9,212 nt of DNA from a virus (lineage: Duplodnaviria > Heunggongvirae > Uroviricota > Caudoviricetes). Made by a program: the position numbers and the translations under genes. Positions 1-3,931 of the stretch are shown piece after piece; position 1 is the first letter of the stretch, and each line of letters starts with the position of its first letter. The stretch lies in IMG/VR virus record IMGVR_UViG_2657244931_000007. One strand, 5' to 3'. Below the pieces are notes generated by a model. That model was given only the letters and a program-made list of their open reading frames with translations, made no database searches and was not told the origin of the DNA.

Positions 1-64
1 TTGATTTAATTGATTAAAATATAAACAGATAGTTCTGTATCTTATTGATTTATAAGGTTATTTT

Positions 65-144
65 TAAATAAAGGTAAATAAAAAATAAATAGCCATAAAT
101 AGCTATAAATACATCTAAATACCTATAAATACATCTAAATACCT
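65..144. repeat. Phased A-tract array: TAAATA recurring every ~10 bp (8 copies), ending in two perfect tandem 20-bp units ATAAATACATCTAAATACCT (105..124, 125..144)
   Basis: TAAATA at 65, 75, 86, 96, 106, 116, 126, 136; helical-period phasing predicts intrinsically curved DNA. Confidence 0.7.
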
Positions 145-235
145 ATATCCCTTCCCTTATGGCTAGATTGCGAGAGGTGCTTAACGCGATTTTCAGCGCC
201 CCCCGATCTGGAAAATCCAGAATCCCCAAATATCA

Positions 236-254
236 AGGAGGCATTACGCCTCCT
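236..254. other. Inverted repeat AGGAGGC-N5-GCCTCCT overlapping the recombinase stop codon
   Basis: Perfect 7-bp arms at 236..242 and 248..254; no adjacent U-tract on the minus-strand transcript, so not a classic terminator. Confidence 0.4.
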
Positions 255-783
255 CTTCTTCCTTCTTAATTCGCTGTACCGTTGAAGGAGCAACATTAAA
301 GCTCTCGGCGGTTTTACGCACTGACACGCCAGCGGAAAGGGCTTTCTTTATACCTTCTCTATCTACTGCTTTTCCATTACCACGCTTTGTAGGATTGACG
401 GCTTGCGCTTCTCGTTTACGTTCTAGCATCAGTTCACGTTCACACGTTGCAACTGCCGACAACATCGTAAGCATCATCTTTCCCATCGCGCTTGTAATGT
501 CTGCAATGATCCCTTCTTTGTGAAATCGAACAATCACACCTCGATTATTAAGTTGTTCAACTAAAGCAAGGATGTCTAAGGTGTTACGTCCTAAACGGTC
601 GAGAGAGTGCACGTGTAAGGTGTCGCCTTCTCTCAGATAGGCTAAACACGCTTGTAAGCCTGGGCGGTTAGTGTCTTTACCAGACAGCTTATCTTCAAAG
701 ACTTTATCGAGAGTTACTCCTGCAAGCTGGCGATCAGTGTTCTGATCTACAGTGCTCACACGCTTATAACCGATATTGCTCAT
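244..783 (-). CDS. Small serine recombinase (resolvase / DNA invertase family), 179 aa
   Basis: N-terminus MSNIGYKRVSTVDQ has the catalytic serine at position 10 in the conserved Y-x-R-V-S-T context; VFEDKLSGKDTNRPGL and HVHSLDRLGRN match Hin/Gin/Tn3-resolvase catalytic-domain motifs; C-terminal helix-turn-helix (VSVRKTAESFNVAPSTVQRI). SD-like AAGGGG (complement of 790..795) sits about 6 nt upstream of the ATG at 783. Confidence 0.88.
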   Translation of the reverse strand: MSNIGYKRVSTVDQNTDRQLAGVTLDKVFEDKLSGKDTNRPGLQACLAYLREGDTLHVHSLDRLGRNTLDILALVEQLNNRGVIVRFHKEGIIADITSAMGKMMLTMLSAVATCERELMLERKREAQAVNPTKRGNGKAVDREGIKKALSAGVSVRKTAESFNVAPSTVQRIKKEEEEA

Positions 784-828
784 AAAAGCCCCTTAATGTA
801 TCGATTTGGCACTACTTCAATGCAAATG

Positions 829-858
829 AGTATACCGTATTCATTTGGTCTGTTTCAA
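829..858 (-). promoter_or_regulatory. Candidate sigma70 promoter for the recombinase gene (-35 TTGAAA, 18-bp spacer, -10 TATACT on the minus strand)
   Basis: Reverse complement of 853..858 is TTGAAA and of 829..834 is TATACT; sits about 45 bp upstream of the recombinase start codon. Confidence 0.35.
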
Positions 859-910
859 GCCTTATAGGTACGGAATATTACACGATTTAGCTGTATTCAT
901 TTGGTATGCC
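835..910. repeat. Direct repeats GTATTCATTTGGT (837..849 and 893..905) just upstream of the recombinase gene; candidate recombinase site (res-like) or operator
   Basis: 13-bp identical direct repeats 56 bp apart, overlapping the predicted recombinase promoter region. Confidence 0.4.
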
Positions 911-1352
911 TAATGGATACACAGGGGGATAGATTAAATGGTGTTCTGTTTATACAGGTTTATTTGTTAGATCAACAATTTGGCATTTCTAAACAGATGT
1001 TTGAACGTTGCCAAATGTATTGACAACACAAGAAAAGGGCTTGCTATGCCACGCATTACACGAAATAAGGCTGTAAAAACAAAATAAATTTTAAAATTTG
1101 CACAAACAAGAAAACTCGTTCAGAAACAAGCAGAACAATTTTTAGCCAACAATTTCTGATGGTGCTCTGTAAGCCGCATTACACAAGGCTTTGCGAAAGT
1201 GATGTAAAAGTGAAGAAAGTTAACATTGCACTTTTAAGCTACTTTTCATTGAATTTTTAGTATGGAATTACACAGGAATAAGTTAGGGATATTCTATGAT
1301 TTACACAGGGAATATAGGGGGATTATGGCACACACATAGAAAGGCATTACAC
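877..1352 (+). repeat. Dispersed array of an ATTACAC(A/G) motif, same orientation (copies at 877, 1055, 1178, 1267, 1299(TTTACAC), 1346; partial ATACACAGG at 917)
   Basis: At least 6 copies in about 480 bp, irregular spacing, often extended to cATTACACagg; candidate protein-binding iterons. Confidence 0.55.
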
Positions 1353-1510
1353 AGAGTGCTATGTGACAAATGGATGTAACGAGAGGTTACATTCAGCTAT
1401 CTGAAATGCTCTCTGTAAGAAAGTAGGTAGTAACGGTAGGTCACTGTGAGCTACCCCCACAGAATTCTGTTACCCCTATCAAGTCTGATACCCGATAAGT
1501 ATAAATAACA

Positions 1511-1611
1511 CCTAGGAAATGATTTCCGATCTATTTAGGAAGTAACCTAGGAAGTGGTTTCCTACCTACTTAGGAAATGAGTTCCTACCTACCTAGGAAA
1601 TGAGTTCCACC
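1511..1611. repeat. Iteron cluster: four copies of a 13-bp palindromic core GGAA(A/G)TG(A/G)(T/G)TTCC with shared CCTA...TACC flanks
   Basis: Cores at 1515..1527 (perfect palindrome GGAAATGATTTCC), 1550..1562, 1573..1585, 1596..1608; the last three centres are 23 bp apart. Confidence 0.7.
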
Positions 1612-1672
1612 AATACTATAATTAAATACTATAATTAAATAATATAAATAATATTCTTTATACTATATATAT
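1612..1672. repeat. Very AT-rich tract with tandem ATACTATAATTAA x2 (1613..1625, 1626..1638); candidate DNA-unwinding element next to the iterons
   Basis: Almost pure A/T directly 3' of the iteron cluster. Confidence 0.5.
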
Positions 1673-1680
1673 GATCTTTT

Positions 1681-1860
1681 GCCTTCCGGCGTTAGCTTCA
1701 CTCTCTGGCAAGCAGCCTTACTCCGCTACCTTTCGGGCTTCGTGGCTGGCCCGTTCCGCTCACACCGAAAGCAAAGCGTTACTTTCTTCGTGTAACTATC
1801 GTTGGCGGTAACGCCCACGAAGAAATACTATTGCGCTGTGCGCAGAAGAGTAATCACCTA
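1681..1860. other. GC-rich island with nested stem-loops; candidate structured non-coding RNA or structured DNA site (strand unknown)
   Basis: Clearly GC-richer than the flanks. 9-bp stem TTCTTCGTG (1784..1792) / CACGAAGAA (1816..1824) encloses GGCG-GTAA-CGCC (1804..1815; GNRA-type tetraloop); second stem CTTTCGG (1730..1736) / CCGAAAG (1765..1771). Confidence 0.35.
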
Positions 1861-1898
1861 ACCAATCATACTGATTGCTACCAATCATACTGATTGCT
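1861..1898. repeat. Perfect tandem duplication of a 19-bp unit ACCAATCATACTGATTGCT, each with internal inverted repeat CAATCA-TAC-TGATTG; candidate operator for a dimeric DNA-binding protein
   Basis: Units at 1861..1879 and 1880..1898 are identical; 6-bp arms with 3-bp spacer inside each. Confidence 0.7.
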
Positions 1899-1923
1899 TA
1901 CGTGTTAACTCTCTCTAACTCTT

Positions 1924-2081
1924 AATTCCACTTCCTACATTTAATAACTCTCGTTATTCTCTGTAGTTGTGTAATTACTCGAAGAGAGAGCGGCTAAAGC
2001 TCAATTACACTCTGCTTTCCTCGTGTAATTTCACTAAGCCTCAATACAATTCCACTTCCTACATTCTGTAGTCGTGTAATT
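1924..2081. repeat. Duplicated module AATTCCACTTCCTACATT + CTGTAG(T/C)(T/C)GTGTAATT; copy 1 is split by a 19-bp hairpin-forming insertion
   Basis: 18-mer identical at 1924..1941 and 2048..2065; 16-mer at 1961..1976 and 2066..2081 (one mismatch); 1942..1960 TAATAACTCTCGTTATTCT is present only in copy 1 and contains AATAAC/GTTATT inverted arms. GTGTAAT (reverse complement of ATTACAC) at 1969, 2023, 2074 and 1790 (GTGTAAC); forward AATTACAC at 2003. Confidence 0.65.
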
Positions 2082-2083
2082 GT

Positions 2084-2115
2084 TTTCGGTGGAAAAGCCA
2101 GAGGCGACACCGAAA
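2084..2115. other. Hairpin TTTCGGTG-N16-CACCGAAA; its 3' arm shares the 10-mer ACACCGAAAG with the hairpin at 1730..1771
   Basis: Perfect 8-bp inverted arms at 2084..2091 and 2108..2115; ACACCGAAAG at 1762..1771 and 2107..2116. Confidence 0.5.
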
Positions 2116-2125
2116 GAGAATTCTG

Positions 2126-2210
2126 ATCTTATTAATCTTATCTATCTTAGTTAATCTTCTTACTTATCTTACTTACTTATCTTACTTTATCTACTTTATT
2201 ATTAATAATA
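2126..2210. repeat. G-depleted T-rich tract of degenerate CTTATCT / TACTTA repeats
   Basis: Only one G (2150) in 85 bp on the plus strand; strong strand asymmetry. Confidence 0.6.
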
Positions 2211-2234
2211 GCTTTATAAGCTCTCTGTAGCTCT

Positions 2235-2294
2235 CTGACGCAAGAAACAGCATTCAGGAAGGGAATCACCTTAGAAAAGTGTTCTTTGCGTCAT
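2235..2294. other. Imperfect inverted repeat CTGACGCAAGAA ... TTCTTTGCGTCA, about 38 bp apart
   Basis: Arms at 2235..2246 and 2282..2294, near-complementary with a one-base indel. Confidence 0.35.
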
Positions 2295-2610
2295 AATGTG
2301 TTTTATGAAGGATTCAGAGGTGTTTCATAACAGGAGTGTATAGAGGATATTTTAATTAATTAAAAATAAGGGGTCTAAATGCTTCTCTAACAACATTAAG
2401 CAGGGTAGGGAATGGAAACGCATTGCCTACACATATAAGCTCACTACAGAGCTTTACAGAGCGTTTTATAAAGTAACTCTCTATCTTATATCTACCATTA
2501 CCTTTTCATATACCTAACAAATACAAAATAAGCCCCTTAAATAAGCCTCTGGCGAGCTAAACAGCCATTACATAAGGGAATGTGTTGCTTTTATCAAAAC
2601 TTCGTTAGAA

Positions 2611-2631
2611 CGCGTTTTAGAGCGTTTTAGA
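2611..2631. repeat. Tandem GCGTTTTAGA x2, with a related AGAGCGTTTTA copy at 2458..2468
   Basis: 2612..2621 and 2622..2631 are identical 10-mers. Confidence 0.5.
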
Positions 2632-2691
2632 CAATAAGGAGGAATAGCACTACACAGAAGAGCACGAATTGCTAAGAAAAAATGTAAGTGC

Positions 2692-2753
2692 ATGAAAAAG
2701 ATCAGATTTTTTTATGAAAAGGTATTGACAAATGTTTCTTTATATGTAATAAT
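2692..2753 (+). promoter_or_regulatory. Early-operon promoter: -35 TTGACA (2725..2730), 17-bp spacer, extended -10 TGtAATAAT (2745..2753); direct repeats ATGAAAA(A/G)G (2692..2700, 2714..2722) upstream and AGGTATT (2720..2726, 2754..2760) bracketing the core
   Basis: Perfect -35 hexamer, 17-bp spacing, TG-extended -10, about 110 bp upstream of the first plus-strand gene. Confidence 0.55.
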
Positions 2754-2807
2754 AGGTATTAGAGGGACAGAAAACATTCTTCTCTAAATAATCAAAATCA
2801 ACGCACT

Positions 2808-2843
2808 TTGAAGCCGTCAGGCTTGCAAGGTGTTTTTTCTTTT
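2808..2843 (+). terminator. Leader hairpin plus T-run between promoter and first gene; attenuator-like
   Basis: Stem AAGCC (2811..2815) / GGCTT (2820..2824) with loop GTCA, extendable with mismatches; palindrome CTTGCAAG at 2822..2829; T-run 2833..2843, directly upstream of the RBS AAGGAG (2852..2857). Confidence 0.3.
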
Positions 2844-2862
2844 AACTGAATAAGGAGTTTTT

Positions 2863-3051
2863 ATGAAATGGTTTACATCGGAGCACGTCATTCAGGCATT
2901 TAAAAAAGGTGAGCTTACACGACATCAAGTAGTAATGAATCGTAATATGGCAAGGAGTCGAGGTTATCCAGAGCGTGAAAAATGTTTTGACGATGCACTG
3001 AAAATTATTGATGAACTGCGTAAAGCTGAGAAAGAAGCAGAGAAAAAATAA
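2863..3051 (+). CDS. Hypothetical small basic protein, 62 aa (first gene of early operon)
   Basis: RBS AAGGAG 5 nt upstream of the ATG; downstream gene follows with its own RBS. Confidence 0.7.
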   Translation: MKWFTSEHVIQAFKKGELTRHQVVMNRNMARSRGYPEREKCFDDALKIIDELRKAEKEAEKK

Positions 3052-3075
3052 TAGACAAGAGAAGGAGAAAACCAA

Positions 3076-3264
3076 ATGAATATTAATTTTGATTCTGCAA
3101 CTTATAACGCGTTGTTAAATCGCGCAAAGGCAGAAGGGAAATCAATTCCAAAACTTGTTAATGAACTACTAATTACAGTCCTTACAAAGGAGGAACTAAA
3201 TGATCAAAAATATCAAAACAATTGCCGAAGCGAAAGCCAAATGTCTAAATCAGAAAGATGGTAA
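3076..3264 (+). CDS. Ribbon-helix-helix (Arc/Mnt/CopG-like) DNA-binding protein, 62 aa; putative transcriptional repressor
   Basis: MNINFDSATYNALLNRAKAEGKSIPKLVNELLITVL fits a beta-strand / helix / helix RHH pattern; RBS AAGGAG at 3062..3067; 3' end overlaps the next gene by 65 nt. Confidence 0.65.
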   Translation: MNINFDSATYNALLNRAKAEGKSIPKLVNELLITVLTKEELNDQKYQNNCRSESQMSKSERW

Positions 3265-3931
3265 ACAAAAATATGTAGTTGTTGAGCAATGGTTGAAGAT
3301 GTTTAAAAAATGGTATTCACCATCTGGTAATGAATACACCGCTACACTGCCAGCCGTTGAAATCTATAGCTATATAGCTGGATTCAATGAACAAGGGCAA
3401 GAATGTTACGCTACTCAAAAAACATTAGCTAATATTGGAATGGTTAGTGATCGCCAGGTTCGCAATATTATAAATATGTTTGTTGATATGGGAGTTCTTT
3501 CTGTAGAGGCACGGGACGGTCAAACATCACTCTATAAAGCATTACCATTTACAGATGCACATATTACTCCCCCAGGAGAATCATCACTCTCTGATCTTTC
3601 TGAGGCAGAAGAAGCACAGGAACAACCTAAAGGCCATAAACAGCCTTCTTTTGATGTTCTTGATGATTGGGATGCGCCTTTGCCGTGGGAGACGGAAGAA
3701 ACACCTGTTTCATCAAGTGAAAAGGTAGCTAATGATAATGAGGAGGATGTGTTAGAGAATTTTGCCTCTCTTATCATCCAGGAGAAACACACACGAACAG
3801 GAGGAGCATCATTTATTGAGTTTGCAAATTCACTAGCTTGTAGATACGGGCTAAAACGACCAAATGGTATTGAGGCATATTTTTCTAAGCATTACCCAAA
3901 TGTATATGACGACTTTGATATTCCATTTTAA
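3200..3931 (+). CDS. Winged-helix-like DNA-binding protein with acidic C-terminal region, 243 aa; candidate replication initiator or regulator
   Basis: Strong RBS AAGGAGG (3187..3193), 6-nt spacing; segment YATQKTLANIGMVSDRQVRNIINMFVDMGVLSVEA resembles a wHTH; C-terminal half is acidic and low-complexity (SEAEEAQEQ ... DDWDAPLPWETEE). Confidence 0.75.
   Translation: MIKNIKTIAEAKAKCLNQKDGKQKYVVVEQWLKMFKKWYSPSGNEYTATLPAVEIYSYIAGFNEQGQECYATQKTLANIGMVSDRQVRNIINMFVDMGVLSVEARDGQTSLYKALPFTDAHITPPGESSLSDLSEAEEAQEQPKGHKQPSFDVLDDWDAPLPWETEETPVSSSEKVANDNEEDVLENFASLIIQEKHTRTGGASFIEFANSLACRYGLKRPNGIEAYFSKHYPNVYDDFDIPF

Follow-up and report, generated by a model that had tools for sequence, protein, structure and literature searches.

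A Tn3-like candidate res site directly upstream of a small serine recombinase gene in a phage-related island of Escherichia coli

The resolution site (res) of Tn3 consists of subsites of 28, 34 and 25 bp, with a distance of 53 bp between the centers of sites I and II. Serine resolvases also function in the resolution of plasmid multimers, e.g., in the ParA/res system of RK2/RP4. In Tn3-type res, three sites each accept a resolvase dimer, with site III adjacent to tnpR; crossover takes place at an AT within site I, and the promoters are located within res and repressed by resolvase (PMC9943657, PMC7157771). Relative to site III, the spacer of site I is 3 bp longer and that of site II is 9 bp longer, and Tn3-like site II carries a conserved A-tract (PMC9943657). 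The res site of Sin has two dimer sites, the second with half-sites in direct repeat, plus a site for HU/IHF (PMC9943657). In this study, we analyzed the region directly upstream of a small serine recombinase gene in a DNA stretch of 9,212 nucleotides (IMG/VR record IMGVR_UViG_2657244931_000007, Caudoviricetes), referred to below as the window.

A first-pass annotation of this DNA, made from the letters alone, had placed a site for the recombinase directly upstream of its gene, overlapping its promoter. Sequence comparison supports this proposal, as the site travels together with the gene and keeps a fixed spacing. We propose that positions 798-920 are the res site and that, together with the gene, they form a self-contained, Tn3-like cassette for resolution of dimers or multimers (236 to ~913); for this explanation as a whole, we estimate a probability of about 0.72. 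The segment 798-920 is very probably the cognate site of the recombinase in some form. The exact limits of sites II and III, and autoregulation, are predicted with less assurance, the sequence leaning in their favor. A res that contains the promoter of the small serine resolvase gene beside it is a known kind of element and no surprise to a specialist.

Organization and conservation of the candidate res site

Two exact copies of the 13-mer GTATTCATTTGGT, already reported in the first-pass annotation, are present on the plus strand at 837-849 (copy 1) and 893-905 (copy 2), 56 bp apart. Several other repeat families occur in the left 2.2 kb of the window, and repeats per se are not unusual there. 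However, an exact 13-mer repeat less than 100 bp apart is expected only 0.03 times per dinucleotide-shuffled window (any such repeat was present in 2% of shuffles), so chance does not account for this one. Searches allowing mismatches revealed degenerate copies at 798-810 (plus strand, GTATCGATTTGGC, 3 mismatches) and 908-920 (minus strand, GTATCCATTAGGC). The whole window has nine matches with at most 3 mismatches, four of which are inside one 123-bp stretch directly upstream of the recombinase gene. Each exact copy is paired with an inverted degenerate partner, 908-920 for copy 2 and 860-872 for copy 1. Comparison with relatives supports the view that the two 13-mers are the gene-proximal half-sites of two separate inverted-repeat dimer sites, I and II.

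The predicted layout comprises three dimer sites made of six half-site blocks at fixed spacing (Table 1), with the half-site consensus (T)GTATyCATTwGG. Site I is followed, in the direction of the gene, by a 20-bp spacer, site II and then site III; the centers of sites I and II are 52.5 bp apart and those of sites II and III 37.5 bp. The dyad is clear in site I, whose gene-proximal half is copy 2, and weak in sites II and III. Site I is also the conserved block farthest from the gene, and homology with two related loci (L084 and L085) stops at its outer edge. Crossover sites of serine recombinases are classically dyads of 28 bp centered on an AT, and site I would fit this pattern. In candidate site II, both halves are conserved blocks (alignments A1 and A3) separated by a long central spacer that contains the -35 hexamer and is variable apart from TTG; in another lineage (L087), the site at the same position has arms matching at 9/12. 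The distal half of candidate site III, GTATACTCATTTGC, includes the -10 hexamer, and 12 of the 14 columns of 822-835 are invariant over four lineages. Clearer dyads of 33-38 bp occupy the site III position in L101 and L102, with arms of 11/12 and 9/12, respectively.

Relatives of the locus were obtained by exact-protein look-up. Recombinases 82%, 83% and 69% identical to that of the window were found on short contigs that have no other gene in common with it. Between the ATG and the outer end of site I, their upstream regions can be aligned with the window with no gap, and similarity is lost beyond this point; thus, the conserved block starts at the gene and ends at the outer edge of the 893-920 dyad, which is the position expected for a Tn3-type res. 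Invariant columns make up 54% of the six half-site blocks versus 27% of the spacers, 5' untranslated region and flank (Fisher p = 0.0025). Both promoter hexamers hold their position in these regions.

Relatives at a greater distance (54-65% identity), among them those on a 1,985-bp plasmid with no other annotated gene (L101) and a 5,657-bp Klebsiella plasmid, have dyads of their own at corresponding positions but with different half-sites (outer motifs such as GTGTTC, TGTAGC and CGTAGTG). In these loci, the center of a 28-32 bp dyad is found 113-125 bp ahead of the ATG; 50-53 bp nearer the gene (60 bp in L101) lies a second site with a -35-like hexamer at its center. Overall, the distance between the centers of sites I and II is 50-53 bp in 8 of 9 loci, L101 being the exception. 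A third dyad or half-site pair adjoins the gene in four of the five distant loci. Among six sequence-independent lineages, four have a dyad with arms of at least 8/12 at the site I position, for which shuffling gave P ~4e-4, a somewhat optimistic value because the position window was picked after the data were seen. The putative recognition helix of the helix-turn-helix (HTH) varies among lineages and the half-site sequence changes along with the recombinase, as expected if protein and site co-evolve.

A contig scan with the recombinase protein returned mostly relatives of 41-55% identity, too distant for direct upstream alignment, and one relative (P0014) has lost its upstream region to a neighboring gene. 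The nearest relatives with known replicon context are located on plasmids of 1,952-5,789 bp (54-56% identity). We also observed three circular 'plasmids' of about 2 kb, L101 (NZ_CP116175, 1,985 bp), NZ_AP027492 (1,952 bp) and NZ_CP130129 (2,000 bp), whose sole annotated gene codes for a serine recombinase (56% identity) and is preceded by a three-dyad res; as replicons, they are unusually minimal.

The minus-strand promoter proposed earlier was recovered at the same site by an independent consensus scan, matching 10 of 12 consensus positions. It had been described as embedded between the repeats; copy 1 in fact sits within the promoter spacer. The -35 element lies in the middle of site II, the spacer over the proximal half of this site and the -10 element in the distal half of site III. 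An arrangement of TTGnnn, a 17-18 nt spacer and a -10-like hexamer occurs at the same position in L084, L085, L087 and L089. In L091, L100 and L102, a -35-like hexamer is central in the corresponding site and the -10 element is weaker or ambiguous. The consensus scan of the window found no plus-strand promoter-like site near site I.

Limits of 784-960, as given in the first-pass annotation, proved too wide. The conserved unit stops at ~920/921, and the segment from ~914 to 960 forms part of the backbone of the island, which recombinase-less islands share. An inverted repeat of this backbone, CAATTTGGCA-N23-TGCCAAATG at 976-1015, is similar to the inner portion of the res half-sites. We considered this repeat (TTTGGCA-N23-TGCCAAA) a possible fourth subsite and rejected it: it is ~96% identical in recombinase-less islands, is absent beside related recombinases elsewhere and falls below the threshold of the half-site matrix. 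Its conservation in islands lacking the recombinase places it outside res.

Table 1. Coordinates of the recombinase gene, the candidate res subsites and associated features in the window
Feature	Position	Strand	Description
Candidate res site I (crossover site)	893-920		GTATTCATTTGGTA/TGCCTAATGGATAC; 28-bp imperfect dyad, arms 10/12, central AT 906/907
Candidate res site II	837-872		Proximal half, 13-mer copy 1 (837-849); distal half, GTACCTATAAGGC (860-872, minus strand)
Candidate res site III	798-835		Proximal half, GTATCGATTTGGC (798-810, plus strand); distal half, GTATACTCATTTGC (822-835, minus strand)
Sigma-70-type promoter-like site	829..858	-	TTGAAA 858-853, 18-nt spacer, TATACT 834-829
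Shine-Dalgarno-like AAGGGG	789..794	-	5 nt upstream of ATG (783-781), read directly from the sequence
Serine recombinase gene, 179 aa	244..783	-	N-terminal resolvase catalytic domain, C-terminal HTH
Swappable cassette	236..913		Hairpin, recombinase gene, promoter and res; right edge approximate (911-914)

Comparison with known resolution systems and proposed mechanism

The recombinase matches PF00239 with an E value of 7.5e-34. Matches to HTH_38 and HTH_7 at residues 141-174 are under the Pfam cut-offs and align with the DNA-binding domain of gamma-delta resolvase. Alignment with the same protein identifies Y6, R8 and Ser10 (in a YKRVS motif) as well as a DRLGR motif. By its predicted catalytic domain and C-terminal HTH, the protein is a small serine recombinase of the resolvase/invertase family. 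Its best solved relatives are the gamma-delta and Tn3 resolvases (E ~1e-28, full length), followed by Gin (4e-26); Sin matches over the catalytic domain only (1e-16). No family name finer than 'resolvase' was obtained from Pfam, NCBIfam or PHROGs. At 97% identity, the protein cluster has 340 members.

The likeness to the Tn3/gamma-delta systems extends from the protein (a serine recombinase of ~180 aa with Ser10 and a C-terminal HTH) to the DNA. The candidate res is directly upstream of the gene, with the candidate crossover site most distal and site III proximal; site I is 28 bp long with a central AT, the distance between sites I and II is ~52.5 bp, and promoter elements lie in res. In contrast to Tn3, a transposase and transposon ends are absent, and the cassette stands alone in an integrated phage-related island. 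The half-sites have a sequence of their own, and a single promoter-like site is present, directed towards the gene.

Several observations weigh against the proposed three-site res. The ungapped outer arms match at only 7/12 in site II and 5/12 in site III, and site III is the least certain subsite because its distal half is 1 nt out of register and needs a corresponding shift. Strong conservation of 822-835 could stem from the -10 element alone. In AT-rich DNA, dyads with arms of at least 9/12 are not rare by chance, about two being expected per 230 bp with all lengths tried. Candidate sites II and III measure 36 and 38 bp, compared with 34 and 25 bp in Tn3, and the Tn3 rule of subsite spacing does not hold, site III being longer than site I rather than shorter; with subsites of 28, 36 and 38 bp, the geometry of the synapse may differ from that of Tn3. 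The A-tract of site II is missing. Arg2 of the regulatory 'R' interface of Tn3 resolvase is not conserved, the recombinase of the window having Ser at this position. Finally, circular replication of the island, which would supply the dimers, is a step that we infer.

Plasmid systems of the ParA/res kind offer a second comparison. As in these systems, a gene and an upstream multi-subsite res would act as a unit that returns replicon dimers to monomers; here, however, the unit is housed not on a plasmid but in a tRNA-integrated island, which carries genes for capsid, tape-measure-like and integrase proteins. Xer sites (dif, cer and psi) have the same functional role, i.e., dimer resolution, but the chemistry is unrelated: the host tyrosine recombinases XerC and XerD act on them, and an element with an Xer site encodes no recombinase of its own for this role.

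The following mechanism is inferred from what is known of the family. Recombinase dimers would bind the three subsites, I (893-920), II (837-872) and III (798-835), each composed of two inverted half-sites. The substrate would be two res copies in direct repeat on one supercoiled circle, namely a dimer of the island in its excised and replicating form. Wrapping of accessory sites II and III with each other would place the two copies of site I in contact. Cleavage of both strands by Ser10 around the central AT (906/907) would be followed by a 180-degree turn of one half-site pair, and religation would yield monomers. Since the promoter elements lie in sites II and III, occupied res should block RNA polymerase. 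Occupancy of these sites may in this way shut off the promoter, with the recombinase repressing its own synthesis as TnpR of Tn3/gamma-delta does.

If so, a res site, a likely crossover point and a promoter are defined for small serine resolvases of a previously uncharacterized clade, whose members are common on enterobacterial plasmids of very small size and occur in ~155 complete E. coli genomes. The new half-site specificity could be of use in orthogonal resolvase tools.

The cassette and its alternatives in tRNA-integrated islands

The window is 97.7% identical, over its whole length, to a ~12-kb E. coli island at tRNA-Thr, and related islands are located at tRNA-Gly and tRNA-Leu. At these three tRNA genes, the island was found in ~730 of 5,426 complete E. 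coli genomes. Its genes code for a Rep-like HTH protein (phrog_270), a lambda-E-type major capsid protein, tape-measure-like and baseplate proteins and a tyrosine integrase, and it looks like a family of satellites or defective phages. No published description of the island was identified in the literature searched. As a further observation, the island (whole window; L001, 19030-31300) has no recognizable portal or terminase. Rfam and tRNA scans of the window gave two sub-threshold chance matches and no tRNA.

The recombinase and res occur in the islands as a cassette, which also includes a terminator-like hairpin at 236-254. This cassette is present in ~155 complete E. coli genomes, most of which have an intact gene; in one recombinase-positive island, the recombinase gene is frameshifted. 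In recombinase-less islands, 236-910/913 is swapped for an unrelated module of ~385 bp, with both flanks 89-96% identical. Homology resumes at a short microhomology, GGAT(T)ACAC. Resolvase-mediated capture, with the right edge of the cassette as the crossover point, was considered and rejected, because homology resumes 5-8 bp to the right of the central AT.

The alternative module (383 bp) occupies the slot that corresponds to window 236-913 and contains a dif-like site, AGTGCATATTACGATTATTATGTTAAAT (L002, 7834-7861, minus strand; L003, 7830-7857, minus strand). This allele is found in 332 complete E. coli genomes. The site shares 21 of 28 positions with dif of E. coli, GGTGCGCATAATGTATATTATGTTAAAT (PMC2731167), among them all 11 positions of the XerD arm, and none of 5,000 shuffles of the module reached 21/28. 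In the recombinase-positive islands examined, no dif-like site of at least 19/28 was found, and the module had no blastn match in the plasmid collection. By eye, an ARG-box-like sequence, TGAAATATAATTAA, was noticed ~110-125 bp from the dif-like site on its XerC side.

A third allele of the slot, in the same orientation, consists of a 63%-identical serine recombinase with a different res (L100, 3001-3549, NZ_CP134663; L093, 6001-6546). Its upstream dyads, GTGTAGTGATAAAGCAGGCTAAATCACCACAC and others, are its own. In the L093 copy (P0024), the catalytic Ser10 is replaced by Trp, and this recombinase copy is presumably inactive.

These alleles appear to be alternative ways of resolving dimers. 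Among the indirect evidence for the proposed function of the cassette, the strongest is that one position is filled by three unrelated devices for dimer resolution. In addition, a Rep-like protein and a tyrosine integrase make a circular replicating form of the island plausible. The observations as a whole (a single res in the island, Rep-like and integrase genes, plasmid relatives and an alternative dif-like allele) are those expected of a multimer-resolution cassette. A broader idea is that the tRNA-integrated E. coli island keeps a dimer-resolution slot near its left end, filled by non-homologous but equivalent devices, which would imply a circular phase; we regard this generalization as tentative, with the odds somewhat against it. 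If it is true, the island passes through a phase of plasmid-like, circular replication, in which it may be a satellite of phi92-like myoviruses, sharing with them the conserved non-coding element at 162-236 (46-70 bp), and in which dimer resolution is under selection. The alternation of a resolvase/res cassette and a dif-like Xer site at one position of the island is natural evidence for a circular replicating state in which dimers have to be resolved, and offers an entry to the biology of a widespread, undescribed phage-related element.

Alternative explanations and neighboring elements

Among the alternatives, the one that survives best, though it is unlikely, is that the cassette is a remnant (tnpR and res) of a decayed Tn3-family transposon, with no present function in the island. 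It would account for the Tn3-like layout of res, for the gamma-delta and Tn3 resolvases being the closest solved relatives, and for the signs of decay noted above, i.e., the frameshifted gene in one island and Trp in place of Ser10 in one relative. However, neither a transposase (DDE TnpA) nor terminal repeats flanking the cassette were found in the window or the whole island, and relatives of the recombinase are stand-alone cassettes on plasmids of 2-6 kb. The gene, as stated, is intact in most of the ~155 genomes and belongs to a protein cluster of 340 members at 97% identity, and the slot of sister islands harbors other dimer-resolution devices.

A res of the Sin/beta type, in which the direct 13-mers would be half-sites of an accessory site assisted by a host bending protein (HU/IHF), with no third dimer site, is very unlikely. 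The first-pass annotation had likened the repeats to such direct-repeat subsites, and there is some resemblance: the two best copies are in direct orientation, half-sites of site II of Sin are direct repeats (PMC9943657), and Sin and beta are likewise serine resolvases with an accessory site beside the crossover site, acting on replicons rather than transposons. The comparison fails in the arrangement, as a single dimer could not span the 56 bp between the copies and an inverted partner exists for each (908-920 and 860-872). The direct 13-mers thereby fall into different subsites of a region with six inverted half-site blocks, of which a third pair adjoins the gene. The matches of the protein itself, 1e-16 to the catalytic domain of Sin versus 1e-28 over the full length of gamma-delta and Tn3 resolvases, point in the same direction. 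A Sin/beta-type res of two dimer sites with an HU/IHF gap does not match this layout, and the Tn3-like arrangement is preferred.

It is still less probable that the enzyme is a DNA invertase. The Gin match is nearly as good as that of gamma-delta resolvase, and some sources label the relatives 'DNA invertase Pin-like'; the 893-920 dyad would then be one crossover site, and an exact inverted 12-mer, ACCAAATGAATA, at 3071-3082 (minus strand) would mark its partner, the two bracketing a 2-kb region free of open reading frames (ORFs). This 12-mer, however, is a lone half-site without a dyad partner, located on the ATG of an ORF (3076-3264), and it is absent from the recombinase-positive islands L096 and L097. 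No second dyad was found in the whole 12.7-kb island. In addition, 135 genomes are colinear with window positions 1-3000 and an inverted arrangement was seen in none of them. Invertase crossover sites also lack adjacent accessory dimer sites, whereas four further conserved half-site blocks are present here. A search for a second copy of the site elsewhere, which the first-pass annotation had suggested as a check, was carried out by scanning the whole island with the half-site matrix; it returned the four copies in res and otherwise isolated matches at the chance rate, but no second site. With no second res in the island, we consider the enzyme most likely to be a resolvase and not an invertase.

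The 3071-3082 sequence was rejected as a partner site, being a lone half-site over a start codon in a variable ORF module, and it is probably a chance occurrence, although a lone half-site of the resolvase on an ATG might conceivably exert weak cross-regulation. L001, L094 and L095 have the sequence, and L096, L097, L002 and L003 lack it.

Equally improbable is the suggestion, prompted by the repeat families that fill the adjacent 2 kb and the several HTH proteins encoded by the island, that the repeats are operators or iterons for another island protein (Rep-like or HTH) or part of a repeat-rich origin-like region, linked to the recombinase via promoter control only, since the blocks are absent from recombinase-less islands that retain the backbone, occur beside related recombinases on contigs and plasmids otherwise unrelated to the island, and have half-sites that change by lineage with the recombinase, whose putative recognition helix also differs.

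The adjacent region itself, 921-2860, is ~2 kb long, with no ORF of 50 aa or more, dense repeat families and no Rfam match. Motifs of the ATTACACAGG type occur at 1052, 1175, 1266, 1343 and 2642. There are also three to four copies of ACCTAGGAAATGAGTTCC at 1510-1610, tandem ACCAATCATACTGATTGCT at 1861-1898, AATTCCACTTCCTACATT at 1924 and 2048, and an array of CTTATCTTA at 2128-2197. Possibly, the region serves the Rep-like protein encoded at 3200-3931 as an iteron-type origin.

On the other side of the cassette, the non-coding backbone at 162-236 matches phi92-like lytic myoviruses (Stephanstirmvirinae/Justusliebigvirus). Directly to its left, at 86-145, lies a TAAATA(N4) array of ~six units with a 10-bp period, which is conserved in recombinase-less islands. 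The phage-like element was also found at L002 7540-7617, L098 1501-1546 and L099 1501-1570. Identity to the E. coli phages is 94-96% over 46 bp and that to a Klebsiella phage 83% over 70 bp, the core being TTGCGAGAGGTGCTTAACGCGATTTTCAG..CCCCC..CAAATATCA. In the phages, it is nearly always single-copy and precedes Phi92_gp001 in an intergenic region, where the genome conventionally starts. The element could be a packaging, origin or regulatory signal that ties the island to a helper phage.

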